Assembly: GCA_963842525.1 (NCBI GenBank)
Contig: CAWJGT010000009.1
Coordinates: forward strand, 1,504,001 to 1,568,000
Direction of reading: 5' to 3'
DNA length: 64,000 nt
Source: an uncultured Holophagales bacterium
GTDB lineage: Bacteria; Acidobacteriota; Thermoanaerobaculia; Multivoradales; UBA5704
Below are positions 5,251 through 64,000 of this stretch, in pieces. Made by a program: the position numbers and the translations under genes. How positions within the stretch are numbered: position 1 is the first letter of the stretch; each line of letters starts with the position of its first letter. Under the pieces are notes generated by a model that worked only from the letters and a program-made list of their open reading frames with translations, did not search any database and was not told where the DNA came from.

Positions 5251-5333
5251 GCCGGAGTGGCGAAATGGCAGACGCAGGAGACTTAAAATCTTCCGCCCTT
5301 ACGGGCATGCGGGTTCGAGTCCCGCCTCCGGCA
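5251..5333 (+). tRNA. tRNA-Leu: tRNA-Leu(TAA)
   Basis: GCCGGAG/CTCCGGC acceptor stem, D-loop GGCGAAATGGCAGACGC, anticodon loop CTTAAAA, long variable arm, T-loop GGTTCGAGTCC. Confidence 0.96.
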
Positions 5334-5447: not shown

Positions 5448-6554
5448 ATGGCGACGATTCGGAAGCGCAAGGGCAAGAACGGACGGATGACTTACGTAGC
5501 ACAAATCAGACTGGCGGGGAGACCCAGCATTGCCAAGACCTTCGAGCGCTTGACCGACGCCAGGGAGTGGGCTGCCAAGGCAGAGACTGAGATGCGGCGG
5601 AACCGCGTGCTCGGTGGACGCCGGACAGTGGCCCAAGCCATCGATCACTATCGCGCTCAGCAGATTGGGACCCTTTCACCGGCCCACATCGTCCACCGAG
5701 AACGCCAAGTCGCTTGGTGGAAGGAACGGGTTGGACGGGTCCTTCTCGAAGATATCGGCCCGAGCCACGTCAACGAGCACCTTCGAACTCTTGAGGGTCG
5801 CAAGGTGGCGACGCGGAATCGCTATCGCGCGGCTATCTCGGCAGTGCTCTCCTTTGTGGTGGAGGAGGAGTGGCTAAGCGCGAACCCTCTTCACGGGCGC
5901 CGTCGGCGACACCGCTCCCTCGGAGAGCGGGAAGAGGAGAGAGACCGTGAGGTGACTCCGCAGGAATGGGAGCGTCTCCAAGATGCGTGCCGGCGCTGCA
6001 GGGACCCAAGGCTCTACGCGCTCGTCTTGTGTGCTCATGCAAGCGGGGCTCGGCAGGGTGAGCTGCTGGGGATGGAGTGGCGGAGGCTTGAGCTTAAGCC
6101 TTGGGTTTTAGACCCTGAGACTGGGAACCGTCGTCAGGGTGTTCCCCGTTGCGAGGTGATGGCTACGAAGAACGGCACGAGCCGAATCTTGTACTTCCCG
6201 GGCGAGGCGGGGGAGCTTCTTGGCGCGATGCGAGCAAAGGCAGTGCTGTCGCGTTACGTCTTCGCTCGTCCAGGAGATGCCGCGAATCTTGAACCTAGGT
6301 TTCCGGGGTTTCCGGATCACGCCTGGCGGCACTGGCGGGACAAAGCCGGACTTTCTGATGTCCGGTTCCATGATTTGAGGCATACCTGGGCCTGCGAGAT
6401 GTTAGACAGCGGGGCTACCTTGGCCCAGCTGATGATTCTGGGGGGCTGGAAGACGGCGAGCATGGTTCGCAGGTATGCAGCACGGGCGCAGAGGCACGGG
6501 TCAGACGCGGTAGAAGTGCGGCATGCAAGAATGCAGGGAGGTCGGCTCGTTTAA
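5448..6554 (+). CDS. Tyrosine recombinase / phage-type integrase
   Basis: Catalytic residues R (SGARQGE), K (ATKNG), HDLRH, GGW, Y (RRYA); directly downstream of the tRNA; RBS GGAGG. Confidence 0.95.
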   Translation: MATIRKRKGKNGRMTYVAQIRLAGRPSIAKTFERLTDAREWAAKAETEMRRNRVLGGRRTVAQAIDHYRAQQIGTLSPAHIVHRERQVAWWKERVGRVLLEDIGPSHVNEHLRTLEGRKVATRNRYRAAISAVLSFVVEEEWLSANPLHGRRRRHRSLGEREEERDREVTPQEWERLQDACRRCRDPRLYALVLCAHASGARQGELLGMEWRRLELKPWVLDPETGNRRQGVPRCEVMATKNGTSRILYFPGEAGELLGAMRAKAVLSRYVFARPGDAANLEPRFPGFPDHAWRHWRDKAGLSDVRFHDLRHTWACEMLDSGATLAQLMILGGWKTASMVRRYAARAQRHGSDAVEVRHARMQGGRLV

Positions 6555-10230: not shown

Positions 10231-10706
10231 CGGAGGTTGCGGCCGGGTGCAGGGACGGTGCCCGTGATCCTGGAGGTGCGGCGGGGGTGGATCTGCTGCT
10301 CCTGGGGAGCCGTGTCGAGGCTGAGGTACGGCTGACCGGCGAGCTCGCCGGGATCGTGATCCCCGCTTTGGCGCTGGTAGACGACCACGGGGGCGAGGTG
10401 GCCTATGTCCAGCTCGGCGGGGAGAGCTTCGACCGGGAGGTCCAGGTCGAGGCCCGCCAGGGAACCGCTAGCGCAGGTGCGGGGCATCACGCCCGTCGAC
10501 GAATTAGCAGCGCAGGCGGCTACCATAGCTCGATTCTTCCGGTGCGGTACGCGGCGGCCCCGGCTTCGGAGAGTCCGGGCTTGTTCCTCGTACTCCACGG
10601 CTGCCTCGTGGTTCTTTTGCCTGCGAGCCTCTCTTGCCGCCTGGGACCATTCTGAGGCGCGACTCTCGAGAGCGCGGTGTCGAGTCCCGCGTAATTCCGT
10701 GGCCAC
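10110..10706 (-). CDS. Hypothetical protein (strand ambiguous)
   Basis: Open frame with high GC3 and a helical-looking N-terminus; the antisense frame is also open. Confidence 0.25.
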   Translation of the reverse strand: MATELRGTRHRALESRASEWSQAAREARRQKNHEAAVEYEEQARTLRSRGRRVPHRKNRAMVAACAANSSTGVMPRTCASGSLAGLDLDLPVEALPAELDIGHLAPVVVYQRQSGDHDPGELAGQPYLSLDTAPQEQQIHPRRTSRITGTVPAPGRNLRSPRDETHGGPNGRLRKVPEGHVEALAEKAFLDRGAADRP

Positions 10707-10747
10707 CTTTTCGAAATATTTCGTGGCGGACAGAAGGGGGAAGAGAG

Positions 10748-10793
10748 CAGTCCCGGATTGGGCCGGGTGGCGGTGGAATCCGGGACTGTTTTT
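10748..10793. terminator. Hairpin downstream of the transposon operon
   Basis: 12-bp stem CAGTCCCGGATT/AATCCGGGACTG followed by a T-run on the + strand. Confidence 0.5.
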
Positions 10794-10829
10794 GACCGAA
10801 GGGGCCGAGTTTTCAGCAGTTGCTTTGAT

Positions 10830-11072
10830 TCATTCTGGTCTTCGCGCCCAGGAGTTGGCAATCCAGCGCCGCAGGCCGACACGGACGTTCTTGAAACGGG
10901 CGGCCGGCCGGTTGTTGTGATACCACCTGAAGGTCTTGGTCTCCTCGAGAATGTTGAGATCCTGGAAGTCTGCGATCAGCTCGTCGACAAACTCTTCGTC
11001 GAGCTTGCGATCGAACGGGTACTCGGGGACCTGGTTTTGCAGGTAGTCGAGGATGGGTTCGGGTGTGTTCAT
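10830..11072 (-). CDS. Small hypothetical protein of the transposon
   Basis: 80 aa, ATGA-coupled to the ATPase gene; typical codon usage. Confidence 0.7.
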   Translation of the reverse strand: MNTPEPILDYLQNQVPEYPFDRKLDEEFVDELIADFQDLNILEETKTFRWYHNNRPAARFKNVRVGLRRWIANSWARRPE

Positions 11073-11875
11073 GAGCGCATCTCCTCGGCGGCTTGCAGGA
11101 CGTGCTCGGGCTCGACGAGCTTGGCTCTGGAAGTGGCTGCGGCGGCCAGGGCGTGGTGGGCCAGGGTGTCGATTCTGCGCATGATGCCCTGGGAGGCTTC
11201 AAAGAGGGCTTCCTGGGCGGGGGCGGTGAAGAGGGGTCGATCCAGGCCGGCGATCTTGAGGCGATGTTCGAGGTAGCAGCAGGTGGTGTCTCGGTCGAAG
11301 CCGCGCAGGGTGAAGCGGATGGTGATGCGCTGAGCGAGGGCCTCCAGATGCGACAGGCGCAGGATCTGTCGCAATCCGGATTGACCGGCCAGGAGAAAGG
11401 CAAGCCGTCCTTCTGCGTCCCATTCAAAGTTGGCGAGCAGGGGGAAGAGGGCGAGGACGTCGGGCCTGAGGTTGTGGGCTTCGTCGACGATGAGCAGGAC
11501 GGTTATGTGGCGGTCTTTGACGAGGCGTTGGATCTCTTGCTGGACGAGGCGGAAGGTCATGGCGCGAGACCATTCGGGCTGGAGGCCGAGTGCAAGGGCG
11601 AGTTGGCGGCAGAAGTCGGCGGGGTTGACCAGGGTGTCGTGCAGGTACACAGCGCGCACCTGGTCGGGGTGGAGATCGTCGCGCAGTCGCCTCAGGGCGG
11701 TGGTTTTGCCGCTGCCCGGCTCGCCGGTGAGCAGGCCGATGGCCCTGGAGTCGACCAGGTAGCGCAGACGGCTGTGGAGCTCTTCGAGCCCCTGAGGCCG
11801 AAACAGAGAGTCGGCGGTGAGGGGGCCGTGGAAGGGCGGCCGGGTGAAGCCGAAGGCGGTGGTATAGAGGTTCAC
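11069..11875 (-). CDS. ExeA-family AAA+ ATPase (transposition helper)
   Basis: Walker A GEPGSGKT, Walker B LIVDEAH, LAGQ, LAQRI; GTG start overlaps the transposase stop. Confidence 0.9.
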   Translation of the reverse strand: MNLYTTAFGFTRPPFHGPLTADSLFRPQGLEELHSRLRYLVDSRAIGLLTGEPGSGKTTALRRLRDDLHPDQVRAVYLHDTLVNPADFCRQLALALGLQPEWSRAMTFRLVQQEIQRLVKDRHITVLLIVDEAHNLRPDVLALFPLLANFEWDAEGRLAFLLAGQSGLRQILRLSHLEALAQRITIRFTLRGFDRDTTCCYLEHRLKIAGLDRPLFTAPAQEALFEASQGIMRRIDTLAHHALAAAATSRAKLVEPEHVLQAAEEMRS

Positions 11876-13200
11876 TGGGGCTCCCCCTGATAGAACTTCT
11901 TGGCGATGAGCTCGAGGTAGCTGATGCCGGTGGTGGGCGCTTCTCTGGCCGGCTCGCTGTTTCTTTCGAGTCGGCGCAGGGTGGCGTTGGTGGCGAGGTC
12001 GAGCCGGCGCAGAGGCAGCTCGGCGCTCTGGCCTTTGCGGCAAAAGTGGACGGGCCGGGCGGGGTCATAGGGATCGTAGAGGACGTCGACGGTCTCACCG
12101 GCATAGCCATCGGGAGCCTCATAGAGACGGCCGTCGAGGTGGACGGTGCGGTCGCGGCCGACCCGGCGGGTGACCTTCATGCGCAGCCAGGCCTCCAGGT
12201 GCTCGGGGGCCGGGCGGATCAGGGCCTGGTCCTTCAGAAAGCGGTCCAGAGGCGTTTGCCCGTCCAGGCCGCCGTGGGCAGTCTGGTGATACTCGCCCTC
12301 CAGCCAGGCCCAGAAGACGCGGTTGAGCTGGGCCAGATCGGCGAGGACCTCGCTGGTGAGGTGGGGGACAAAGGCGGTGCGGACGTGGCGGAAGAAGCGC
12401 TCGATCTTGCCGCGACCGCGCGGCTTGTGGGGCCGGGAGTGGACCAGGGAGATGTTCAGCGTGGCGCAGATGACCTGCAGGTGGTGGGTGCGGAAGGTGG
12501 CGCCGTTGTCGCAGTAGAGCCGTCGCGGCAGGCCGCGGCGCAGCAGAGCCTGCTTCAGAGCGTCCTGGAAGCAGGCGGCGTTTTCGGCCAGGTAGAAGGC
12601 GGCAAACGGCACCATGCGCGAGGCGTCATCGAGGAAGGCGTAGAGGTAGGTCTTGCCGCCGTCCTTGCGCCCCGGCACCAGCAGGCGGGGCCCGTGCATC
12701 AGGTCGGAGGTCCACAGGTCGTTGACATGCGGAAAGGTGAAAGCCAAAGCGTCCGGCTCGGCGCTGGACCCTTGGCGGGCCGGCACCGCCTGGGCGGCGA
12801 AGAAGCGGTGCACGCTGCTGCGCGACAGCCGCAGATTGGGCGCAAAGCGGCCGCACAGATGCACGGCGCGGATCAGGCTGTCGAGCGAAGCACCGGGCCG
12901 CTCGGCCCGCAGCGCCAGCAGCAGATCCTGCACCTCCTCCGGGATCGCCCGCGAGCGCCCGGCATCGGTACGCGGGCCCGGCTTGAGCCCCTCAAACCCA
13001 TGGATCTGGTACAGCTCGAGCCAATCTCGCACCGTCGAACGGCCGACGTGGCTGCGCGCGCTGCCCGGGATCGTCCACGTCTTTTCCGCGATCGCACACA
13101 ACAGCTTCTCTTTTTCGCGTGGCGCCAACGGCCGGCTGATCAGCTCGGCAATGACGCTGTGGCGAAACAACGCAATCTGCTCTCTTTGGCTCTCATCCAT
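11872..13200 (-). CDS. DDE (rve/Mu-type) transposase
   Basis: LWTSDLMHG, AFLDDASR, LYCDNG, GKIERFF; Mu-transposase C-terminal RRVGRD..LDGRLYE. Confidence 0.92.
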   Translation of the reverse strand: MDESQREQIALFRHSVIAELISRPLAPREKEKLLCAIAEKTWTIPGSARSHVGRSTVRDWLELYQIHGFEGLKPGPRTDAGRSRAIPEEVQDLLLALRAERPGASLDSLIRAVHLCGRFAPNLRLSRSSVHRFFAAQAVPARQGSSAEPDALAFTFPHVNDLWTSDLMHGPRLLVPGRKDGGKTYLYAFLDDASRMVPFAAFYLAENAACFQDALKQALLRRGLPRRLYCDNGATFRTHHLQVICATLNISLVHSRPHKPRGRGKIERFFRHVRTAFVPHLTSEVLADLAQLNRVFWAWLEGEYHQTAHGGLDGQTPLDRFLKDQALIRPAPEHLEAWLRMKVTRRVGRDRTVHLDGRLYEAPDGYAGETVDVLYDPYDPARPVHFCRKGQSAELPLRRLDLATNATLRRLERNSEPAREAPTTGISYLELIAKKFYQGEPQ

Positions 13201-13291
13201 CGCACGAAGTCTCCGCAATCGGGCTCTGGGACCATCCCACAGCCCCCGCCAGTAGCTTCGTGGCAGAACCCTGCGATGGGTAGTTACCAAC

Positions 13292-13853
13292 CTATGGAGA
13301 GGCCTCCCCTGACCGCCAGGACGGCCGGCCGTGGCGGAACAGTCCGCTCACTCCGCCGAAAAAGCAGCCCCAGGACGACCACAGAAAGTGCCGCAGCCGC
13401 GTCAACCAACCCGCCGCCTGGCCCACCACCTCCTGCGCCCCCCGCCACCACGGAGCCGGCACTGGCCCCAGCAGCGCCTGCAGCTTGGCGGCAAAGGGCT
13501 CGTGCGCGCTGCGCAGCCAACCCCGCACCCGCCGCACCCCCGAACTGCCGCACTGCCCTGAAACCTCGGCGCCTTCGCTCGGACTCCCCGCAGCCAGACC
13601 CGCCTCCACGGCCGCCAAGGTCAAATCGCGATAGGCGCACGTCCTCCGGCAACACCGCATGGCTGACCCTGCAACGCGGGCACCGCACCCGCCGCAAGGC
13701 CTGAAGCACTCCTGCGAGGAAGCGCTTGTAGGAGCCGTGGCCCCGCAGACGGGTCCTCTGACAATCCGGATCCGGGCAGCTCAGCTCGGGAACCGCCCCG
13801 CCGTCCATCTGCTCTCGATACTGCTTGCAGCCCACGCCCTTCAGACTTAACAT
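13292..13853 (-). pseudogene. DUF6431-like zinc-finger gene, frameshifted near 13640
   Basis: CPDPDC..HGSYKR..RVRCPRC..SHAVLPED continues in another frame as CAYRDLTL. Confidence 0.7.
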
Positions 13854-14101
13854 GGCCTCCTCTCGGAAGCCCGTCGGGTCATCCCCGGTCCGCCAAAAGA
13901 CACAAGGAGAGCCCGGCGGGCTTCGCTTGCCTTGCCCGACCTCTCCACAGGCAAAATCGTCCCGCACTCCTGCGCCGACGAATCTACCTGACCACGCTGA
14001 AAACTGGGAAAAACTCAGGCGGCGGTCACGAAATAAGGCGGGCGTCTACAGCGCGGACAAGTGCTTCGAGGTCAGGGTCGAGCGTCATGCTGCCTCCAAT
14101 G

Positions 14102-15483
14102 GATAGAGGTCCCGTCAAGAGGTGTGTAAAAGATCAGGCGGCTTTCTCCTCCTCGAACCGGTTTTGGACTCGTACTCCATCGACGAACTGAGCTTCCCAG
14201 AAAGACCTCTTTGAGCTGCTCGGGAGCGTTGAGCCGACGGAATGTCTTCTCCGCGACCAAGAGCAATTTCCAGAGGACCGCGGTGGCGTTGGCCACCTTC
14301 TTATAGCGGCGTGCGGCGTCGGTGCGTAGCCGCAAGGCCGCAAACGGCGACTCGATCGGATTGGTGGTGCGCAGGTGCCGCCAATGAGCCTCCGGAAAGC
14401 GATAAAATGTGATTAGTCGCTCCCAGTCTCGATCCAAACACTCGGCGGCGGCCTCCTGGGACTGCTGACGGCACCAGCGCTGAAACTCCCGTTTGGCCGC
14501 CTCGGCTTGCTCTTGCCCGGGCGCATAGACGATCCGGCTCAGCAGCGGTTTGGCTGCGCTCTGAAGCCGTTTCGGCAGCTTGTCGAGAATGTTCAGCATC
14601 TTGTGGTTCCAGCAGCGCTGCTGCTCGGCCTCGGGGTAGACGTTGCCAAGCGCCCCCCAGATGCCCAGGTGGCCGTCACCGGCGACCAGCCGCGGGCACC
14701 TCAGGCCGCGACTTTTCAGGTCCCGCAGCACCGCAGACCAGCTCTGGCTGGATTCCCGGTGGCCGGGCGCCACCGTCAAGATCACCTTTTTGCCGTCCGA
14801 CAGCGCCCCCAGCACCACCAACACCGCGGCCCGGTCCTTTTCCAGGCCCGCCTTGACATAGATCCCGTCCACCCACAGGTAGACCACCTCCAGATCGGCC
14901 AGCGACCGCTGGCTCCACTGCACCATCTCGGCTTGCCACTTTTCCTTCAGCCGCGCCACTGTGCTGGCCGACAACGGGGCCTCTTGCCCGAGCAGGCCCC
15001 TGAGGGCCAAGTCGAAGTCCCCTTCCGCCAAACCATGCAGGTAAAGCTCCGGCAGGAGCTCGCCGACCTGCCGGCTGCGACGAGAAAACATCGGCAGCAG
15101 ACGGCTTTCAAACGGCTCCTCCGTGTTGCGCACGCGCGGTCGCCGTAGCCGGATCGTGCCGTTGCTCAGCGTCAGACGGCGAGGCTTGCCGTAGCCGTTG
15201 CGGTAGCCCGAAGGGGCGTCCACGGCAGCGCGCCGCTGTGATCTCAGGCGACCCAAGAACTCCGTAACCTCTTCTTCGAGAAGAGCTTGCAGGGTCTCTT
15301 GCATCTTTCCTCGTAGCCACTCCTCGAGATTCTCAAAGCATGGGCTTGACACGGTCGTAGCTTCGGTGGTCCTCTCTGTCATGGGCGGTGCCCTCCCTTT
15401 CCCCGGGCCCTCACCCGGGATTTTGGTTGACGATAGGGAGTCTACACCGCCTTCTCTGTTTCCACACCTTCTGAGGGTACCTC
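14102..15483 (-). mobile_element. IS256-family insertion sequence
   Basis: Imperfect IRs GAGGTCCCGTCAAGAGGTGTGTAAA (14106) and reverse-complement GAGGTACCCTCAGAAGGTGTGGAAA (15483); CCAATG on both flanks. Confidence 0.85.
14134..15382 (-). CDS. IS256 (Mutator) transposase, probable frameshift in the last ~20 codons
   Basis: YRNGY, YLWVDGIY, GDGHLG, QRCWNHK, LRTTNPIES; the native-looking C-terminus FVDGVRV..EKAA is in another frame. Confidence 0.9.
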
Positions 15484-15772
15484 CCAATGCGCGCTGAATC
15501 GCCTTAGGTGGCGGCACGGGAACGCCGCCGGCAACGATCCGAACCGCTACCCCGGTCCGGACCGAACCCCAGGAGATTGTGCCCGGCCGGGGGTGGTGGA
15601 ATGGAGCAGCACATCTTTGACTCGCCACTTGGGAACCATACGCGAGGTGTAGCGATCCTGCGGCCCTACCCCCTTCGGAGCAGGTCTCTCGCGAATGGTG
15701 GATGGCTCAGGAGCGGAACGAAACCCAAGCACGGACCTGCCAACCGGCCGCGCGTAGTATCTCCTCGCTTGG

Positions 15773-15793
15773 ATGGTATCTATATGGTATCTA
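15773..15793. repeat. Tandem ATGGTATCTA x2 (11-bp period), arm-type site candidate
   Basis: Direct repeat ~60 bp from the tRNA-Thr fragment, with an IHF-like site (TTTCAATAGCTTG, minus strand) between them. Confidence 0.5.
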
Positions 15794-15853
15794 CAGAGGC
15801 GCCTTGGCGCCCTGGTTGCCACCTGCAAGCTATTGAAAGTAGTTGAATTACGC

Positions 15854-15898
15854 TGGAGCCGACGATCGGGATTGAACCGATGACCTGCTGATTACGAA
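15854..15898 (-). pseudogene. 3' half of tRNA-Thr(CGT), an att-site remnant
   Basis: Minus strand TTCGTAATCAGCAGGTCATCGGTTCAATCCCGATCGTCGGCTCCA; acceptor 5' strand and D-arm are absent. Confidence 0.85.
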
Positions 15899-15899
15899 G

Positions 15900-16200
15900 C
15901 AGCGCATAGCCGAGCCGCTGTCCGATCCGCCAGCAGGGCATGGCTTTGAGGCGGCCCTCTGTGAGCTGCTGGTCCGCAGGAGCTGCGAGAGCGCGGCCGA
16001 GCAGGCCTCGGAAGCCATCGACCTGGCCGACCTCGCGGTCCACTTGGCCGACAGGATCTCGGAACAAGACCTCTTCGAGGCGCACTTGGTCTACCAGCTC
16101 CGAGTCTCACCTGGGCAAAGTCTCGGCAACGCCACCAAAGTCCAGAGAGATCTCCCCGGCGCCGAGCGGTGCATCGGCATGGCGGATACCTGGTGGGCGG
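15900..16200 (+). pseudogene. Fragment of a TPR-like helical protein
   Basis: LCELLVRRS..AIDLADLAVHLADRI..LGNATKVQRDLPGAE resembles TPR proteins I recall from Thermoanaerobaculia; no start codon. Confidence 0.5.
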
Positions 16201-16569
16201 GAGGAAGGCGAGGGCTGGAGGGATGGTACGGGAATAGCGAGCTGCGGCAATCCTGGCCAGGACCGTGGGGTGGTCCAAGGGGGCACGGCCCGGGCTCAGG
16301 TCTCCCGGGCCAGCGGTAGGGCGCCCTGTTACCGTGTACCAGTTCTGTACCAGTGCCGGCCAATACTCACCTGATCTCGGGAGATCATGGGCGATTGGGC
16401 GACCAACCGAAAGCGTTGCGTTTGTTGAGTTTACCGTCTGGCGACGTCTGGGGAGTGTTGGCGGGAAGCCGACTTGTTCTCTCATTCGGGCATCCCGTGC
16501 GCGCATAGAGAGAATCCTCGGAGTTTTAAGGTCCCACCCGCTGGACGCACTAGACTAAGACTAGGTCCT

Positions 16570-16760
16570 GACCGATGAGGTGCATGAGGAGGTTGGCGCC
16601 CGCGCCAGAAGCGTCGGACCGTCTCGATCTGCTCCAGCATGATCTCGTGCCGGTGGGTATAGCGGTCCGGGAAGAAGAGGAATGTCGTCGACGTTCCAGC
16701 CCGAGCCGAAGGAGACCGCGACGCGGGCTCCCAGAGAGGTTGTCGACTTCGACCTGGATT
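16570..16760 (-). pseudogene. Degraded copy of a MupA/Atu3671-type LLM monooxygenase gene
   Basis: VDNLS..RVAVSFGSGWNVDD / FLFFPDRY..RHEIMLEQIETVRRFWRG / GANLLMHLIGQ align to 20427-21545, with frameshifts and an internal deletion. Confidence 0.85.
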
Positions 16761-17365
16761 GGGCGGGCGTCGATACCCCAGGGTGTGGTGGAGATGGCTC
16801 TCCCCGGAGCACCAGGAGGAAGCCGGGCCGGCCCTCAAGAGCGGCGGCCAGCCGCTCCTCCAGCGGCGGAAGAGCGCCGCGGGCGAGGCTGGGGCGACGC
16901 AGGCCAGGGAGGGGACGCGGAAGCGTCTGCTTCTGGGTGTAGTTCCGCCTACATTAGCCAGTGGAAGAAGCGCTATGGAGAGTCAGAACTGGCCGGCTTC
17001 AGGGCCGTCAAATGCACCAGTTCGCTACCTCTGCAAACTAGAGAAACATTCGAAATTGTGACATTCTAGGGGAAACGCGCCCGTGGCCGGCGGTCGGGAG
17101 TCCTCCGCGAACGAATGGCTACGGGCCCTCCTTCAAGACCATAAGGTTGAGGTGCGGCGCTATAAGCACACCCTTACTCAACGACATCCAGGCCTGTAGC
17201 GAGATCCCGCGGGCCAGGGGGCGTCACTGGTTTGGCCTCCTTGATGCCGGGATTGGCTGCCCGACGCCTGCTCCCGCTTCGCCTCTCAGGTACCAGTGAG
17301 AATGAGAAAAGGTGCAACTTGCCTGCAGGTCTAGTTCCGAGCGATGCTTTCCAGGAGGGCCTTCC

Positions 17366-18673
17366 GTGGTTGAACATCGACAGTTCCGCTTGAAAGCATT
17401 TGAGGTGATTGGATCCGAGTCCATTGCCAGCGTGATCGAGCGCATGGTGGGCCACGAGGCCTTGCGCTGGTACATCTCCCGGATTACTGATCAGGAGATC
17501 ATAGTCGAGGCTACACTCGCGGAAGGGGAGATGTTCGCGCCCGAGACGGTGGCCGATCGTGCGTGGTATCCTGGCAGGGCGGTGGTGGTGAACCTTGTCC
17601 CCACCGGCATCGGTTGCGACTTGGGTGGATACGCGGGCGATGCGGCTCCGGCTACCAATCTGATGGCCGCCACGGCGGACTACCTTGTCACCAATCCGAA
17701 CGCCGTCAACGCCTCCAACTTCATCAGTATGACCGACAACGTGCTCTACACCGAAGGCCTCTGCATCGACCTGCTAATGAAGGGAGCCGTGGACCTTCAG
17801 GTACCCTATGCGAACAAGGTCGGCCTGATTATAGAGAAGACCAGTCCTGAGGACCTGGACCTAGTGTTCAACGTGATCAATACAGTCCGAGCTGTGTTCG
17901 GCATCGACGTGGTGGAGTACGTCGTCACTGACCAGTCTATCGGCAGCCACTGCCTCGAGAACGGCTCCGGAGCGTTTGTAGGTACGGTGGACCGGCCAGA
18001 TGTGCTCTTCGATGCCTGTGAGCAACTGATCCGCAAGGGCGTCAACGCGATCTCCGTGACCACCAACATCCAGGACCTCCCGTCGGAAGAGTACGTCAAG
18101 CACTTCGAAGGCGATTATCCGAACCCGCTGGGCGGAGTCGAGGCGATCATCTCGCACCTGATCGTCAACCGGTTCCAGGTGCCAGCGGCCCATGCGCCGA
18201 TGCTGAACAAGAAGGATCTTGAGCTGAACGACCCGATCGTTGACGCGCGCGGGGCCGGCGAGATGGCGTCTGCCAGCGGCCTCGCCTGCACCTTGATTGG
18301 CCTGCGGCGGGCGCCGCACATCAGCCGGCATCGCTGCTTCAACCCGGCGGACCTGGTGAATGTCCACAACGTGCTGGCAGTGGTCTGCCCGGCGAGTTCG
18401 TTGGGAGGCATCCCGGCGAGCTATGCCCATAAGCACGGCATTCCAATCCTGGCGGTGAAGGAGAATGGCACAGTGATGAAAGTGCCGGGTAGCAGGCTCG
18501 GTTTCGAAAACGTGATCGAAGTCGGCAACTATCTCGAGGCCACGGGTGTGCTGCTCGCGCTGCGTAAGGGGATCAGCCTCTCCTCGGTGCGGCGCCCGCT
18601 CCCGACGCTCCGGCATGGGATGGGCTCCACCGCGGAGAAGGCGAAGCCGCGAGCCCGATTCGAGGTGGTCTGA
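17366..18673 (+). CDS. DUF3326 domain-containing protein
   Basis: VPTGIGCDLGGYAGDA, LVTNPNAVNAS, GGVEAIISHLI, PAAHAP, NYLEATG; GTG start after RBS GGAGG. Confidence 0.85.
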   Translation: MVEHRQFRLKAFEVIGSESIASVIERMVGHEALRWYISRITDQEIIVEATLAEGEMFAPETVADRAWYPGRAVVVNLVPTGIGCDLGGYAGDAAPATNLMAATADYLVTNPNAVNASNFISMTDNVLYTEGLCIDLLMKGAVDLQVPYANKVGLIIEKTSPEDLDLVFNVINTVRAVFGIDVVEYVVTDQSIGSHCLENGSGAFVGTVDRPDVLFDACEQLIRKGVNAISVTTNIQDLPSEEYVKHFEGDYPNPLGGVEAIISHLIVNRFQVPAAHAPMLNKKDLELNDPIVDARGAGEMASASGLACTLIGLRRAPHISRHRCFNPADLVNVHNVLAVVCPASSLGGIPASYAHKHGIPILAVKENGTVMKVPGSRLGFENVIEVGNYLEATGVLLALRKGISLSSVRRPLPTLRHGMGSTAEKAKPRARFEVV

Positions 18674-18699
18674 AGCAAGTGCAGCGGAGGCGCACGAGC

Positions 18700-18835
18700 A
18701 CCTCTGTCGCTGAACACGACATCCGCGGGCAAGGCGATGAGATCGCGGAAGATCTGGCGCCTGAGGGTCCGCATAGCCCGCATCCGATTAGCCAGCAGGT
18801 GATACAAGCCGCTGGCGATCACCAAGAGGGTGTCT
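18700..18835 (-). pseudogene. C-terminal transposase fragment
   Basis: TLLVIASGLYHLLANRM..RQIFRDLI resembles transposase C-termini; flanked by a short IR pair AAAAGTCGG/CCGACTTTT (18838-18923). Confidence 0.4.
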
Positions 18836-18932
18836 GAAAAAGTCGGAGCGCCATCCAGGGATTTGTTCCAAACTCCCGGTTTCCAAGGCGACAGAACGAC
18901 CTCGGCCTCCACGACCGACTTTTCCCGAGCGC

Positions 18933-20324
18933 TCAGACCTCGACGACGATTCCCTCAGTGGCGTAGAGGCTGAGGTTCACCGCCCCGCCGCTGGCCTTCG
19001 GCTGCATACGCAGGACCACCCCGGCGTACGACCCGGCGAAGACGAAGGGACCCCAGATGACATCGTGGACCTCGCACCCCTGGTCGCCGCTCTGGTAGAG
19101 GTAGGGGAGCGATTCGAGCTGCTCCTGGACAACCCAGGCGCCATCCTGCGCCAGCGCCTTGTCGACTGTCGCCCGCCACTCCTCGGCCGTGGCGAAGCGG
19201 CCGAGCACGACCCCCTTGCCACCTCTGGACGATGCCTCCTTGAGCACCAGGCGCTCCTGGCGCGCGATCAGCAGATCCTCCAGGGAGGAGGACCGCTCCC
19301 CTTCGAAGTCGACCGGACCGGGGACCACCAGGCGGGTCCAGGGCACGTGCCGGGCGATGAAGGCCCGCTCCTCGGCGTCGAAGATCTCCGCGGACTCGGC
19401 GTGCTGGGAGAGCAGCGCGACGTTGCGCTTGGTCGACAGCACCGACTCCAGGGGGCCATTGAGAATAGAGAGCTGGCCGGCCTTGAAAGCACGGTAGACC
19501 GGCTCCGGCGCGAGCTGCGACGCGAATTCGAGGACCGCCTGCACCCGACGTCCCTCATGAAACACGCCCTCCGGCGTGCCGGTCAGGTCCGCGTACCGGC
19601 AGACCACGGCGCGCCCCCGCAGGTCGCCGCGACCCGCGGCGGCGAACGCGCGCGCGATCTCGCCGTTGAGGAAGACAACCTCCGGATCCGTCGGGCCGAG
19701 CGGCTGGTTGCGGGTGGTAAAGGCGAGCGTCAGCTCGCCGCTGTCGAGGAGCCCCTTGCGCTCGAGGTCGGCGAGCAGGTGCAGGAAGAACTGGAGCACC
19801 GTGTCCGTGTAGCGCACCTCGATGCCCAGCTCGCGCAGGGCAGCGGAGGTTGCCGGTACCGACAGGTGCATGCCCACCAGCAGCGACGTCTCCCAGCCGC
19901 CGAGGTTGGGGGTGAAGTTGAACTCGATGCACTTGAAGCCGTCCGCGGTCTCGATCAGGTCGCCGCGGGAGACGGCGGTCTCGATGCCGCTCGGCGGGCT
20001 GAAGAGCAGCTCGGCGATCCGCGGCGGGCCCAGGCGGTAGAACTCGGCCAGGCGCGCCGGGTCGCCGCCGAAGATGCGCTGCGGCACGCTGGCCAGCAGG
20101 TTGAAGACGCCCAGGCTCACGCGCTGCAGCTCCGCGAGCTTCTCGGCCCCGAGGAAGGTCGGCCAGGGCTGCAGCCGGTACATCAGCAGGTCCTTGTTCT
20201 GCTCCAGCGCCTGGAAGGACGAGCGGGAGAGCAGCTCGGGGGAGCCGAGCGCCATCTCACGGAAGCGGAGATCCTGCTCGGACAGGGCCTGGTGCGTCGC
20301 ACGCCAGTCTGCGCTCTGGGTCAT
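18933..20324 (-). CDS. Circularly permuted ATP-grasp (glutathione/glutathionylspermidine synthetase-like) amide ligase
   Basis: SRGDL, KCIEFN, LVLKE..GGKGVVLG and WVVQE motifs; start MTQSAD with RBS AGGAG. Confidence 0.8.
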   Translation of the reverse strand: MTQSADWRATHQALSEQDLRFREMALGSPELLSRSSFQALEQNKDLLMYRLQPWPTFLGAEKLAELQRVSLGVFNLLASVPQRIFGGDPARLAEFYRLGPPRIAELLFSPPSGIETAVSRGDLIETADGFKCIEFNFTPNLGGWETSLLVGMHLSVPATSAALRELGIEVRYTDTVLQFFLHLLADLERKGLLDSGELTLAFTTRNQPLGPTDPEVVFLNGEIARAFAAAGRGDLRGRAVVCRYADLTGTPEGVFHEGRRVQAVLEFASQLAPEPVYRAFKAGQLSILNGPLESVLSTKRNVALLSQHAESAEIFDAEERAFIARHVPWTRLVVPGPVDFEGERSSSLEDLLIARQERLVLKEASSRGGKGVVLGRFATAEEWRATVDKALAQDGAWVVQEQLESLPYLYQSGDQGCEVHDVIWGPFVFAGSYAGVVLRMQPKASGGAVNLSLYATEGIVVEV

Positions 20325-20346
20325 GGAGATCTCCTGATACCGCACC

Positions 20347-20358
20347 AGCTTATAGCCG
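20347..20358 (-). promoter_or_regulatory. CGGCTATAAGCT -10-like motif upstream of the ATP-grasp gene
   Basis: Exact 12-bp match to 24143-24154 (+). Confidence 0.5.
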
Positions 20359-20426
20359 ATCCGCCATGGCTGGAAGGGCCCCGGTGCGCGACCTGGGTTA
20401 GACTCGGGTCTTTCAACGGAGCCTCC

Positions 20427-21545
20427 ATGGATTTCGGCTTGATGTTCTTCTCCAGCTCCGGCGCGGCTGCGGCGAACGGCCGCTACAGCCTGCTCCTCGA
20501 GGCGGCCCGCTACGCGGATGAGCACGGTTTCCGCGCCGTCTGGACGCCGGAGCGGCACTTCCACGAGTTCGGCGGCCTGTTCCCCAGCCCGGCGGTGGTC
20601 AGCGCCGCCCTCGCCATGATCACCCGCCAGCTCGAGATCCGGGCCGGCAGCCTGATCTCGCCCCTGCACCAGGCGATCCGCATCGCCGAGGAGTGGTCGA
20701 TCGTCGACAACCTCTCCGGCGGCCGGGTGGCGGTCTCCTTCGGCTCCGGCTGGAACGTCGACGACTTCCTGTTCTTCCCGGAACGCTATGCCTCGCGCCA
20801 CGCGGTCATGTACGGGCAGATCGACACCGTGCGGCGCCTGTGGCGCGGGGAAGAGCTGGAGCTGGCCAACAGCTTGGGCAAGCCGGTCCGGGTCGCGCTC
20901 TACCCGAAGCCGGTGCAGCCGGAGCTGCCGGTCTGGATCACCTCCTCGGGCAACGTCGAGACCTTCGTCAGAGCCGGTGTCCACGGCGCCAACGTGTTGA
21001 CCCACCTGATCGGGCAGACCGCCGACCAGCTCGCCGGCAAGATCGAGCGCTATCGCGCCGCGCTGGCCGAGCACCAGGGGCCGCAGGCCCGGGGCAAGGT
21101 CACGTTGATGCTCCACACCTGCCTGGGCGCCGACCGCGAGGAGGTCAAGGCGCGAGTGCGGACGCCGTTGCGCGAATACCTGCGCTCCGCGGTCAGCCTG
21201 GAGCAGCTCGCGGCCCTGGGCGGCGGGACGATCAGCGGCGGGCACCAGATCCAGGCGCAGGAGATCCCGCCGGCGGTCCTCGAGGAGCTGCTCGACGTCA
21301 CCTTCGAGCGCTACGTCGAGACCGCCTCCCTGATCGGCACGCCGGCCAGCTGCGAGCCTCTCCTCTGGCGCTGCGAGGAGATCGGCGTTGACGAGATCGC
21401 CTGCCTGGTGGACTTCCTCGACGACCCGGCCGCGGTGATGGCGGGCCTGCCGTACCTCGCGGAGCTGCGCGAGACCTTCGCCGACCCGGCAGGGCCCGGA
21501 GGCCTCGATCCCGTCCGTGCGCTGCTCGAGGGCTTCGAAGGATGA
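20427..21545 (+). CDS. MupA/Atu3671-family FMN-dependent luciferase-like monooxygenase
   Basis: MDFGLMFF, AVWTPERHFHEFGG, AEEWSIVDNLSGGR, GANVLTHL, GVDEIACLVDF. Confidence 0.93.
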   Translation: MDFGLMFFSSSGAAAANGRYSLLLEAARYADEHGFRAVWTPERHFHEFGGLFPSPAVVSAALAMITRQLEIRAGSLISPLHQAIRIAEEWSIVDNLSGGRVAVSFGSGWNVDDFLFFPERYASRHAVMYGQIDTVRRLWRGEELELANSLGKPVRVALYPKPVQPELPVWITSSGNVETFVRAGVHGANVLTHLIGQTADQLAGKIERYRAALAEHQGPQARGKVTLMLHTCLGADREEVKARVRTPLREYLRSAVSLEQLAALGGGTISGGHQIQAQEIPPAVLEELLDVTFERYVETASLIGTPASCEPLLWRCEEIGVDEIACLVDFLDDPAAVMAGLPYLAELRETFADPAGPGGLDPVRALLEGFEG

Positions 21546-24115
21546 CGCCGCCGGACGCCTCTGCGCACCGGGTCGCCCTCCCCGGCTCCGGCGGGCAATG
21601 GGCCGTCTGGCGCCGCCTCTGCGTGCGCGGCGCCGGCTTCCCCGTGGCCGGCGTGCTGCGCCTCGCCTCGCCGCTCGCCGCCGCCGCGGCCGACCGTCTC
21701 AACGCCGCCGAGGCCGAGGCCGAGCGCCGCCGCCTCGCCGCGGTGGAGGCGGTCGGCGCCGCCATGGAGGGTGTCCTGGAGAGCGCCGGCCGCGACGCCT
21801 TCAAAGGTCTGCTCAAGGCGATCCAGAAGCTCAACAAGGGGAAGGTCCCCCCGGGCGACGGCCTGCCGGCCGCGGCCGCCGCCGCCGTGGCGGCCTACGG
21901 CGCTGCGAGCGGGGAGGCCGGGAGGCTTCAGGAGGAGTACCTCGCCGTTGCGGCGGCCGAAGAGCGGCGGCTCGCGGGCGAGCTGCGCGCGGTCGCCCGC
22001 GAGCCGCGGTTCCGCGAAGCCGTCCTCTGGCAGAACCGCCACGTGCTCAAGGCCGGGATCGACAGCTTCCTGCGGCAGGAGGCGAGCGGGCGGCGATCGT
22101 CGAAGGAGCGCCAGAATGAGCTGGCGGTCACCTCCTACCTCCAGCGCTTCTGCACCAAGAACGACACCATTGGATTCTTCGGCCCGGTCGGCTGGGGGAC
22201 GCTGGGAGAGGAGGACGAGCCGCTCGCGGTCACCCACGGCCCCGGCTTCCTCGCCGCGCGCAGAGTCTTCTTCGAGGGGTGGAGCGTCGACGCCCTGGCC
22301 GAGCTGCTGGCGCGCGATCCGGAGCTGCGCCCCGGCCTCCCGCCGCGCCGGGGCATCTTCGTGCGCTCCGACGGCGAGGTGATGGGCCGGGGGGCCCGGC
22401 CGCTGCCGGCGCCCGCGCGCGCCCTGCTCGCCCTCTGCGACGGCGGCACCCCCGCCCGCGAGGTAGCGCGCCGCCTGGTCGCGGCGGGGACCTTCCCGGA
22501 CGCCGAGGCGGTCTACGGTGCGCTCGACCAGCTGTGCGCCGCCGGCCTCGTCCGCTGGGGCTTCGAGCTCCCCCTGGTGCTGGAGCCCGAGCGCGTCCTG
22601 CGGGAGCAGATCGAGGCCCTGGAGCCCGGAGAAGCGCGCGACCGGGCGCTCGCTACCCTCGGGGAGATGGAGGCGGCCCGCCGCGCGGTGGCACATGCCG
22701 CCGGCGACGAGCGGGCGCTGGACGCGGCGCTGCACGAGCTGGAGGATCGCTTCACCCGCCTGAGCGGCCTGGGCGCGACCCGCGGCCATGGCGAGACCTA
22801 CGCCGGCAGGACCCTGGTCTACGAGGACTGCCGCCGCGGTTCCGAAGTCGCCCTGGGCCGGGAGGTCCTCGACGCCCTGGGGCCGCCGCTGGCGCTGGTG
22901 CTGGCCAGCGCCCGCTGGCTGACCCACGCCGCGGCCGAGCTCCACCGCGCCTACTTCGACGAGGTCTACCAGCGGCTGCGCCAGGAGACCGGCGGTGCCC
23001 GGGTGGACCTGGCGACCTTCTGCCGCCGGGCGCTGCCGGCCATGGTCGGGCCGCAGAACCTGGTCGTCCGGCAGCTCCTGCCGGAATTCCGGCGTCGTTG
23101 GACGGAGGCGCTCGCGCTGCCCGACGACGGCCGCCGGCGGGTGAGCTACACCGCCGAGGAGCTGCGCCCGCGCCTGCTGCGCGCCTTCGACGCGCCGGGG
23201 CCGGGCTGGACCATCGCGCGGCACCACAGCCCGGACGTGCTGCTCGCCGCCCGCGGGCCCGAGGCGGTCCGGCGCGGCGACTTCCAGTTCGTCCTCGGCG
23301 AGCTGCACCTCGGCACCAACACTCTCAGCACCAACCTCTTCGTCGGCCAGCACCCATCCCCGGCGGACCTCTTCGCCGCCATGGAACGGGACCTGCCGGA
23401 GCCGTGCGTGTTCCCCACCCTGCCCAAGGTCTGGCAGCAGCAGCAGTCCGACGCGCTCCTCGGTGTCCCCTTGCAGGGGCTGACCGGCCGGCTGTACTTC
23501 GGCCTCGCGACCGGCAAGGACCTCTTCATCGAGGTCACCCCGGCGCCCCCGGGGCTGCCGAGCTCGCAGGTGCTGTCGGTCGCGGAGCTCGCGGTCGAGC
23601 CCGGCGCCCGCGGCCTGCAGGTGGTGAGCCGGACGGGCCGTTGCTTCGACCTGCTCGACTTCCTGCAGACCGCGATCACCTCCCAGATCGTGGGCGCCTT
23701 CCGGCTCTTCCCGGCGCGGTCCCATCTGCCGCGGGTCACCGTCGACCGTCTGGTCCTGTCGCGGGAGTCCTGGGCCTTGCGCGCCGGCGACCTGGAGTTC
23801 GCCCAGGCAGCGACGGAAGCCGCCCGCTTCGCGGGGGCGCGCCGCTGGGCCGCCCGCCTCGACCTGCCACGCTTCCTGTTCGTCAAGACACCCTATGAAA
23901 CAAAGCCGTTCTATCTCGATCTCGAGAGCCCCCCGTCTGTCGAGATCTCCGCCCGCGAGGTGCGGCGGGCGTCGGACAAGAGCGAAGGGAAGGGGGCGGT
24001 CCGTCTGAGCGAGATGCTGCCCGCGCCCGACGAGGCCTGGCTGCCCGACGCCCAGGGGGACCTCTACGCGAGCGAGCTGCGGATGGTGGCGGTGGACCTC
24101 GCCGGGAGGGGCTGA
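21542..24115 (+). CDS. PEARL / small LanB (lantibiotic dehydratase glutamylation domain only; peptide aminoacyl-tRNA ligase)
   Basis: FREAVLWQN, YLQRFCTKNDTIGFFGPVGW, GRTLVYEDC, HHSPD, LGELH, PRVTVDRLV..RESW, KPFYLD, SEMLP, ELRMVAVD at the C-terminus; 857 aa with no elimination domain. Confidence 0.9.
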   Translation: MTPPDASAHRVALPGSGGQWAVWRRLCVRGAGFPVAGVLRLASPLAAAAADRLNAAEAEAERRRLAAVEAVGAAMEGVLESAGRDAFKGLLKAIQKLNKGKVPPGDGLPAAAAAAVAAYGAASGEAGRLQEEYLAVAAAEERRLAGELRAVAREPRFREAVLWQNRHVLKAGIDSFLRQEASGRRSSKERQNELAVTSYLQRFCTKNDTIGFFGPVGWGTLGEEDEPLAVTHGPGFLAARRVFFEGWSVDALAELLARDPELRPGLPPRRGIFVRSDGEVMGRGARPLPAPARALLALCDGGTPAREVARRLVAAGTFPDAEAVYGALDQLCAAGLVRWGFELPLVLEPERVLREQIEALEPGEARDRALATLGEMEAARRAVAHAAGDERALDAALHELEDRFTRLSGLGATRGHGETYAGRTLVYEDCRRGSEVALGREVLDALGPPLALVLASARWLTHAAAELHRAYFDEVYQRLRQETGGARVDLATFCRRALPAMVGPQNLVVRQLLPEFRRRWTEALALPDDGRRRVSYTAEELRPRLLRAFDAPGPGWTIARHHSPDVLLAARGPEAVRRGDFQFVLGELHLGTNTLSTNLFVGQHPSPADLFAAMERDLPEPCVFPTLPKVWQQQQSDALLGVPLQGLTGRLYFGLATGKDLFIEVTPAPPGLPSSQVLSVAELAVEPGARGLQVVSRTGRCFDLLDFLQTAITSQIVGAFRLFPARSHLPRVTVDRLVLSRESWALRAGDLEFAQAATEAARFAGARRWAARLDLPRFLFVKTPYETKPFYLDLESPPSVEISAREVRRASDKSEGKGAVRLSEMLPAPDEAWLPDAQGDLYASELRMVAVDLAGRG

Positions 24116-24142
24116 GCCGGCCGCTGCTGCGGAGCTGGAAAC

Positions 24143-24159
24143 CGGCTATAAGCTATAAT
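24143..24159 (+). promoter_or_regulatory. Putative -10 region (CGGCTATAAGCTATAAT) upstream of the first NRPS
   Basis: TATAAT at 24154-24159 in a short AT-rich gap, ~30 bp before the GTG start. Confidence 0.5.
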
Positions 24160-24186
24160 CAGTTTTCCTTTCCGGAAGGATGTGGA

Positions 24187-64000
<39,814 letters not shown>

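Follow-up and report, generated by a model that had tools for sequence, protein, structure and literature searches.

A PEARL-type ligase, a luciferase-like monooxygenase, an ATP-grasp-fold ligase and a DUF3326 protein encoded beside a FAAL-initiated NRPS/PKS line in an uncultured Acidobacteriota bacterium

We analysed a stretch of 64,000 nucleotides (hereafter, the window) from an uncultured Holophagales bacterium of the Acidobacteriota class Thermoanaerobaculia (assembly GCA_963842525.1, contig CAWJGT010000009.1, positions 1,504,001 to 1,568,000 of the forward strand). It carries a hybrid nonribosomal peptide synthetase/polyketide synthase (NRPS/PKS) line that starts with a fatty-acid–AMP ligase (FAAL), preceded by genes for a DUF3326 protein, a predicted ATP-grasp-fold ligase, a luciferase-like monooxygenase (LLM) and a PEARL-type amide ligase. 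Pfam, TIGR04020 and fold comparison confirmed all of these genes at the positions given in a preliminary description of the window. The window holds the first half of what is best read as a hybrid NRPS/PKS lipopeptide cluster of ~110 kb, probably part of a genomic island, and the balance of the evidence tilts slightly towards the PEARL, the LLM, the ATP-grasp protein and the DUF3326 protein all serving this FAAL-NRPS/PKS lipopeptide pathway.

Four accessory genes and the assembly line

The PEARL-type gene (21542..24115, plus strand) encodes an 857-residue putative ATP- and aminoacyl-tRNA-dependent amide ligase of the LanB N-domain-only type. PF04738 is the sole Pfam family in the protein (E 2.2e-39, 135.6 bits against a cut-off of 28); NCBIfam assigned no family to it, and the comparison with PDB chains gave no sequence match at E 0.01. 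The elimination domain PF14028 is absent from the protein and its neighbourhood, its genome-wide matches being confined to contig C3. Homologues align from residue 3, which supports the called start. Nine residues (R29, Y199, Q201, R202, K206, N207, H589, E845 and R847) are invariant in a 19-protein PEARL-like alignment and invariant or with one exception in a 22-protein alignment, and these alignments include proteins of tandem multi-PEARL clusters (G020, L007, L008). By position alone, R29, E845 and R847 can be likened to the residues that mutagenesis and modelling are reported to have shown to be required for phosphorylation, namely R10, E801 and R803 in TglB and R34, E813 and R815 in BhaBC (PMC11962472). 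A 2026 review states that there is no PEARL structure (PMC12945691). Judged by its sequence, with PF04738 only and the conserved Arg and Glu-x-Arg, the gene is that of a PEARL-type ligase, in keeping with its earlier identification, and it is the only PEARL gene in the genome.

Directly upstream lies the gene for a stand-alone, FMN-dependent LLM of the MupA/Atu3671 family (20427..21545, plus strand; 457.6 bits against the TIGR04020 cut-off of 244.45). The LLM stop codon and the PEARL start codon share the letters ATGA, a 4-base overlap read directly from the sequence and in agreement with the translational coupling described for this pair. Within the genome the LLM is most similar to three LLM domains that are inserted in adenylation (A) domains, all three of which carry glycine-type specificity codes: identity to these is 56, 53 and 51%, against 45–47% to three other paralogues, and the 56% figure is for the LLM inside the third A domain of the first assembly-line protein, N1.

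The predicted circularly permuted ATP-grasp-fold ligase (463 residues, 18933..20324) is encoded on the minus strand, divergently from the LLM as first described, with a spacer of 102 bp between the two genes by coordinates and sequence (20325..20426). The label CP-ATP-grasp stands by fold and does not stand by Pfam thresholds. Over about 50 residues the protein has sub-threshold matches to CP_ATPgrasp_2 (19.2 bits against 32) and CP_ATPgrasp_1 (15.3 against 23.1 bits, E 0.01); NCBIfam gave no match, and a profile search of the family against PDB sequences returned nothing significant (3n6x, E 0.56). An AlphaFold2 model (pLDDT 93.4, built on 33 sequences) matched glutathione synthetase, Cp1B, 3n6x, GspS and YgiC in Foldseek with probability 1.00, E values of 6.5e-18 to 1e-11 and TM scores of 0.5–0.64, at a sequence identity of just 10–16%; the top match was the eukaryotic-type (human, yeast) glutathione synthetase 8fbz (E 6.5e-18, TM 0.62). 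Going by this model, the ATP-grasp fold is real, yet the protein lies outside the Pfam families by their thresholds. Its family has at least 175 homologues, and the 120 listed are all without a Pfam domain, the names given being "hypothetical protein" from metagenome-assembled genomes (MAGs) of Acidobacteriota. E134, N136, K299 and K362 are invariant in the family alignment and are candidate counterparts of the Mg and ATP ligands of glutathione synthetase.

The DUF3326 gene (17366..18673, plus strand) encodes the 435-residue protein P0121, which matches PF11805 at E 4.1e-85 (286.2 bits against a gathering score of 25). Foldseek found no credible PDB fold for its model (best E 2.1e-3, TM below 0.25), an ESM Atlas search for relatives outside PF11805 gave no usable match, and NCBIfam assigned no family.

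The assembly line begins 71 bp after the PEARL gene with N1 (24187..37893, plus strand), in which Pfam, a phmmer domain map, motifs and NCBIfam together delineate the order FAAL, acyl carrier protein (ACP), starter condensation (C) domain with HHxxxDF, and three A domains each followed by a thiolation (T) domain, that is, FAAL-ACP-C-A-T-C-A-T-C-A-T. The N-terminus scores best as a fatty-acid–AMP ligase (PRK05850, E 4.1e-142, below the curated cut-off), and the same start holds a Pfam DIP2-like AMP domain, a GLDSL carrier motif and the HHxxxDF C domain; these sequence features point to the FAAL, ACP and starter C layout. N2 (37878..47420, plus strand; Pfam, phmmer) reads KS-AT-ACP-C-A-T-C-A-T, where KS is ketosynthase and AT acyltransferase, and no ketoreductase (KR) domain was found in it by Pfam or the phmmer domain map. 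N3 (47417 to 78400, plus strand; Pfam, phmmer, motifs; positions beyond 64,000 are extended window coordinates throughout) comprises 10327 residues, the first 5527 of them in the window, and reads C-A-T-KS-AT-ACP-(C-A-T)x7-C-TauD, its last C domain being without HHxxxDG. N1–N3 span 54.2 kb, and about 39.8 kb of NRPS/PKS lies inside the window.

NRPS/PKS genes continue to ~128 kb in window coordinates. Beyond N3 there are a B12-radical-SAM gene, at least 10 NRPS modules, one KS-AT-KR-ACP module and two TauD-type genes, together with genes for an asparagine-synthase-like protein, a MacB-type permease, a carbamoyltransferase, a methyltransferase and a CmlA-like hydroxylase; the last NRPS open reading frame (ORF) has a C domain at its end. 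Specificity codes were extracted heuristically, anchored on conserved A-domain motifs. By their presumed substrates they are Gly-type in N1_A3, N3_A1 and D2_A1, Ser-type in N2_A2, Asp-type in D1 and Glu-type in D3_A1 (D1 to D3 lying in the downstream block).

Module 3 of N1 (33000-37893) has, mid-line rather than at the end, a Gly-code A domain (DILQLGMVWK) with two inserts, an LLM (MOx) domain (34732..35640, plus strand; TIGR04020, 524.2 bits) and an FkbM-family methyltransferase (MT) domain (36628..37212, plus strand; Methyltransf_21 E 8e-16, TIGR01444 108.8 bits). Another cluster of this genome, near 1345836 of the same contig, has an A[LLM][MT] module as well. Its composition suggests that it gives an alpha-hydroxy- or alpha-methoxy-glycine residue, and we know of no described A[LLM][MT] module of this kind. 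The three TauD-type dioxygenases (75614-78400, 91849-92886 and 113373-114515) differ in their placement: the first is fused to the end of N3, behind its C-like domain without HHxxxDG; the second comes after a C domain, from which a stop codon separates it; and the third stands alone ahead of an A-T-C ORF. The layout at the end of N3 resembles the interface-domain and hydroxylase layout described for MxgA/MxgB (PMC13638107).

Related loci and gene linkage

In species-representative genomes, a search with the PEARL alignment pattern recovered 594 or more relatives, of which the 80 best loci were kept for counts from a local domain scan, with NRPS/PKS, FAAL and MacB genes counted within 10 kb. 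Because these loci are kin rather than independent, the counts are descriptive and are not tests. NRPS/PKS domains lie in the flanks of 64 of the 80 loci, a MacB permease in those of 21 and a FAAL in those of 13; a TauD-like gene was found at seven loci and an asparagine-synthase-like gene at one. Several PEARLs and no NRPS were found at 6/80 loci, and a single PEARL and no NRPS at 10/80, eight of these ten being shorter than 14 kb. PEARL relatives are present in 5 of the 201 genomes sampled from the class. The closest (L005, L128, L126 and L127; 63–66% identity) are all NRPS-adjacent and form with the window PEARL a clade of five with support 1.0 (MAFFT and FastTree). An oxygenase recurs beside the PEARL, as the TauD-like genes at 7/80 loci, an FAD monooxygenase in L005 and the LLM in the window; since these are three unrelated types, a plausible step in common is that either the added residue or the acceptor becomes oxidised.

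Three of the related PEARL loci have particular layouts. L088, from a Candidatus Angelobacter MAG, holds a MacB gene, a PEARL gene, a FAAL-C-A-T gene with a Glu-like code and a second PEARL gene. This is a minimal system in which the PEARLs may extend an N-acyl amino acid; small loci of this kind fit a PEARL role on acyl-amino-acid carboxylates, and L088 would lend itself to experiment more readily than the window cluster. L091, from a gammaproteobacterial MAG, and L097, from Parvularcula, share a gene order that runs from FAAL-C through DUF3326 and PEARL to an A-T-C unit with the exact ureido-forming signature EHHxxHDG. Each is a chain-reversal system like that of the sna cluster discussed below, plus a FAAL and DUF3326.

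DUF3326 occurs in 3/201 genomes of the class and 5/401 of the phylum. Fourteen DUF3326 loci were examined, the window included, and eight of them carry NRPS/PKS domains: the window, a second copy in the same genome (contig C34), L005, L128, L021, L091, L097 and L110. A PEARL lies near DUF3326 in six of the fourteen, among them L005 and L128; in L091, L097 and L110 it follows DUF3326 directly, with gaps of 32–67 bp, so that 3/80 PEARL loci have DUF3326 immediately upstream. The two genes are thus neighbours in other phyla too. A rare A-domain code is common to four DUF3326-containing clusters, DF[FWY]HHGG[VI]NK, at D3_A3 (~100656-102155) in the window cluster, L021:599, L091:12802 and L097:12807. 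Among the 80 PEARL loci, with 101 A domains between them, the code was found twice, each time at a DUF3326 locus, and the genome has it in 4 of its ~220 A domains; the resolvable A domains of the C34 DUF3326 locus do not have it. DUF3326 may help to make or handle the building block of the rare-code A domain. In another locus (L045) an Orn/DAP/Arg-type pyridoxal-phosphate-dependent decarboxylase gene lies directly upstream of DUF3326, echoing the PavA–PavB pair of the pavettamine cluster. A DUF3326 gene and an ATP-grasp gene 7 kb apart in L037 were considered as a functional pair and rejected, given the RecG, SerA-type dehydrogenase and housekeeping-type genes around and between them.

The ATP-grasp family was found in 10/201 class genomes and examined at 13 distinct loci, the window excluded and L039, a repeat of L016, counted once with it. 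NRPS or FAAL genes adjoin the family at five of the thirteen (L016, L018, L019, L042 and L044), and at one PEARL locus of the 80 (L118) a PEARL lies directly before a family member. The gene order in L016 and L018 is ATP-grasp, MacB, FAAL-NRPS, and in several Pyrinomonadaceae loci it is MacB, PEARL, (TauD), FAAL-NRPS; as the one mirrors the other, the comparison suggests that the two ligase types may fill similar roles. Elsewhere the family has radical-SAM neighbours (L013) or an MvdD-like ATP-grasp neighbour (L014), or occurs as tandem pairs (L041, L043), and its contexts in these four loci and in L019 hint at a broader role in peptide natural products.

Proposed pathway and known systems

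In the pathway that we propose, the FAAL of N1 would load a fatty acid, which N1–N3 would extend by 13 amino acids and two malonate units, with further modules acting downstream. The PEARL would most likely use ATP to phosphorylate a free carboxylate on the lipopeptide, to which it would couple an amino acid taken from aminoacyl-tRNA. Since the line has no ureido-forming C domain and its N-terminus would be blocked by the fatty acid, candidate acceptors are Asp- or Glu-type side chains, or the terminus once released; the Asp-type code of D1 and the Glu-type code of D3_A1, both from the heuristic extraction, mark candidate acceptor residues. The coupled LLM would then most likely oxidise the added residue or the acceptor, the divergent ATP-grasp ligase would form a second amide bond in the same pathway through an acyl phosphate, and the DUF3326 protein would be a further cluster-associated enzyme, possibly in building-block supply. 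What the sequence data establish is the identity of the genes, the folds, the order of the domains and the repeated association of PEARL with NRPS genes; we infer the substrate, the order of the steps and the action of all enzymes on one product, and with them the idea of the preliminary description that a single lipopeptide is the target of three amide-forming chemistries.

A narrower version of the LLM and PEARL steps follows from the closeness of the stand-alone LLM to the LLMs embedded in Gly-code domains. The pair might be a tRNA-dependent amidation cassette, in which glycine from glycyl-tRNA is added and alpha-hydroxylated and the product collapses to a primary amide and glyoxylate. In the ammosamide pathway, glycyl-tRNA is the nitrogen donor according to a title cited in PMC12945691, and in myxothiazol biosynthesis the monooxygenase embedded in MtaG is reported to cleave glycine and leave an amide (bioRxiv 10.1101/2024.10.28.620694). 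N1 module 3 is like MtaG in having an LLM inside a Gly-code A domain; unlike MtaG, it sits mid-line as the third of the 13 amino-acid modules of N1–N3, has an extra FkbM methyltransferase and is not followed by a thioesterase, so that release of the MtaG type does not apply to it. The stand-alone LLM, unlike the MtaG monooxygenase, belongs to no module. We hold the amidation cassette to be distinctly unlikely; if true, it would merge MtaG-type glycine cleavage with glycyl-tRNA nitrogen donation and constitute a new free-standing route from acid to amide on a nonribosomal peptide.

The architecture had at first been regarded as unlike any characterised cluster, and this no longer holds for its central association: a PEARL in an NRPS-PKS cluster was characterised in 2024, namely SnaE of the threopeptin (sna) cluster of Stackebrandtia nassauensis (Yu and van der Donk 2024, PMC11212132). 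The carboxylate on which SnaE is described to act is produced by a ureido-forming C domain (Curea) with the signature EHHxxHDG (PMC11212132). Compared by description and domain context, the window and the sna cluster each have a LanB-N-domain-only, PEARL-like enzyme inside an NRPS/PKS cluster that has no precursor of a ribosomally synthesised and post-translationally modified peptide, with a proposed addition of an amino acid to a carboxylate beyond thiotemplate extension (PMC11212132). Unlike sna, the window is without EHHxxHDG and has a FAAL start, a far larger line, a coupled LLM, an ATP-grasp ligase and DUF3326. By analogy, the window would work like SnaE in the broad sense of a PEARL serving an NRPS/PKS line, while failing the defining Curea feature. 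To our knowledge just one NRPS-associated PEARL has been studied, and the ureido chemistry is the only proven NRPS route to a PEARL substrate. PEARLs inside NRPS/PKS clusters are thus known since 2024, and what the locus adds is the FAAL start, the coupled LLM, the ATP-grasp gene and DUF3326, without Curea. The literature yielded no characterised cluster matching this locus, the close homologues all being MAG proteins, and in the literature searched no PEARL-NRPS product has been reported from Thermoanaerobaculia-like Acidobacteriota.

Several observations weigh against the proposed pathway. The first is the missing ureido step itself: a regular-expression scan of N1–N3 and the downstream ORFs found no EHHxxHDG C domain, none of the 19 HHxxxD[GAS] motifs having the preceding Glu and the His at +5, and the same scan, as a positive control, recovered the signature in L091 and L097; in the absence of such a domain, SnaE logic does not apply to the window. 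Conserved linkage of the accessory genes is found in part. It holds for the PEARL, NRPS/PKS-linked at 64 of 80 loci, and for DUF3326 and the ATP-grasp family, which recur near NRPS genes; it does not hold for the LLM–PEARL pair, as a MupA-type LLM accompanies a PEARL at 0/80 related loci and at 0/4 of the metagenome loci scanned, nor for the full four-gene set, which no examined locus but the window contains. Six of the 14 DUF3326 loci have neither an NRPS nor a PEARL nearby, and 8 of the 13 ATP-grasp loci lie beside radical-SAM or MvdD-like genes or in no cluster. The sister clade of the window PEARL includes L032 and L033, which are without NRPS within 20 kb. Pfam showed no thioesterase in the ORFs to which it was applied, D2 and D3 having been scanned with our own seed domains only, and three frame breaks lie inside downstream modules at ~94.3, 110.7 and 117.05 kb. 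Finally, the region is a compositional mosaic: GC is 0.74–0.76 in N1–N3 against 0.56–0.67 in the downstream genes, and the DUF3326 gene (GC 0.61), which abuts transposases, has a lower G+C content at third codon positions (GC3 0.78) than its accessory neighbours.

The remaining precedents concern single components. All PEARLs characterised before 2024 are reported to act on ribosomal carrier peptides, with oxidative tailoring to follow (PMC12945691, PMC11212132). The window PEARL is like the pearlin PEARLs TglB, AmmB and BhaB in its domain family, N-terminal Arg, C-terminal Glu-x-Arg and oxidising partner; unlike the pearlin pathways, the window has a single PEARL, no recognised carrier peptide gene and an NRPS context. 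Cp1B, which shares its fold with the window ATP-grasp protein, as do glutathione synthetase, GspS and 3n6x (identity 10–16%), is described as the amide ligase of the E-64 natural-product pathway (PMC12568646). PavB of the pavettamine (pav) cluster is a DUF3326 protein for which a Rossmann-like prediction is given (bioRxiv 10.64898/2026.06.12.731819). Like PavB, the window protein is encoded in a natural-product cluster; the pav cluster has three genes, encodes a polyamine pathway and contains no NRPS, whereas the window DUF3326 lies beside an NRPS/PKS and a PEARL.

Genomic setting, rival explanations and implications

The host genome has 9.95 Mb at ~67.5% GC. Local searches in it found some 220 adenylation domains, along with FAAL-type starts numbering more than 15, an unusually large NRPS load for a genome of this size. 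The close homologues of the window genes are all from MAGs of Thermoanaerobaculia or other Acidobacteriota. Seven public sequencing runs matched, each at 0.05–0.07 of the sampled words, with no RNA run among those listed.

The left part of the window holds core-type genes, for M16 peptidases and a ChaN-like protein. A tRNA-Leu gene (anticodon TAA; 5251..5333, plus strand; ARAGORN) and a phage-type integrase gene (5448..6554, plus strand; Pfam Phage_integrase E 9.5e-19, GC3 0.67) follow and probably mark the edge of a genomic island. A 3.4-kb insertion sequence (IS) with an rve/Mu-type transposase (10678..14051, minus strand; Pfam) has an inverted, 99.9% identical copy at 129078-132452 and at least seven copies in the genome (both by blastn). 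Next to it lies a Mutator-family transposase gene (14072..15628, minus strand; Pfam Transposase_mut E 2.2e-58). The ~1.7 kb between the latter and DUF3326 (15629-17311) hold two ORFs only (15892-16506, minus strand, and 16575-17069), both without Pfam matches, and are probably non-coding or a remnant. With two inverted IS copies bracketing the cluster and the tRNA-Leu and integrase genes upstream, this ~115-kb region looks like a genomic island or composite transposon.

This setting bears on the strongest rival to the proposed pathway, in which two gene sets, one running from the ATP-grasp gene to N3 and the other made up of DUF3326 and the downstream block, were joined by chance or recent recombination, so that the accessory enzymes would not share a single target molecule. 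We regard it as unlikely but as deserving serious weight. The ATP-grasp, LLM, PEARL and N1–N3 genes share a GC3 of 0.91–0.95, against 0.78 in DUF3326 and 0.71–0.88 downstream; N3 ends without a thioesterase, and the radical-SAM gene stands between it and the next NRPS gene. The rare A-domain code links the downstream block to the DUF3326 clusters L021, L091 and L097, in the first of which DUF3326 lies inside the NRPS line with no PEARL in the locus fetched, and IS copies and transposases flank the region. Against a chance junction, D1 starts with a C domain and could therefore take the chain from N3, whose terminal T, HHxxxDG-less C and TauD domains precede the Asp-type module; from the LLM gene to the MacB permease gene all genes lie on one strand with short gaps; and the DUF3326–PEARL adjacency recurs in other phyla.

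Alternatively, the LLM and the PEARL could be a self-contained pearlin-type unit that needs no NRPS and builds an amino-acid-derived small molecule on a carrier not recognised here. The ribosomal carriers and oxidative tailoring of the earlier PEARLs speak for this, as do the sister PEARLs L032 and L033 and the six related loci with PEARLs only. It is nevertheless improbable: a search of the gene gaps found no plausible carrier-peptide ORF in the 259-bp spacer (18674-18932; the other gaps have 102 and 71 bp), the LLM and PEARL genes overlap and lie a mere 71 bp from N1, the genome has a single PEARL, and 64 of the 80 relatives are NRPS-linked. Less probable again is a decaying cluster that makes no full product. 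The frame breaks, which fall in one A and two C domains of the block with lower GC, and the multi-copy IS at the flanks would agree with decay, and the breaks may be either that or sequencing indels; but N1–N3 (54 kb) and the four accessory genes are intact, and the IS copies themselves differ by small lengths (2500 against 2502 bases aligned), as would fit sequencing indels. That the PEARL gene instead encodes a split-LanB glutamylating dehydratase acting on Ser/Thr in the peptide is hardly credible. In its favour, PF04738 is the glutamylation domain family and a presumed Ser-type module (N2_A2) is present; against it, the sole PF14028 lies on another contig, and the conserved Glu-x-Arg and N-terminal Arg resemble PEARL phosphorylation residues.

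For the PEARL family, the survey suggests that ureido chain reversal would not account for most NRPS-linked members, since the exact ureido signature occurs at only 2 of the 80 loci. The window cluster offers a large, intact-looking example in this lineage. Knowledge of what its three enzymes (PEARL, LLM and ATP-grasp ligase) do would help to predict product structures for many silent clusters, and the locus could yield enzymes that extend or amidate lipopeptide carboxylates.

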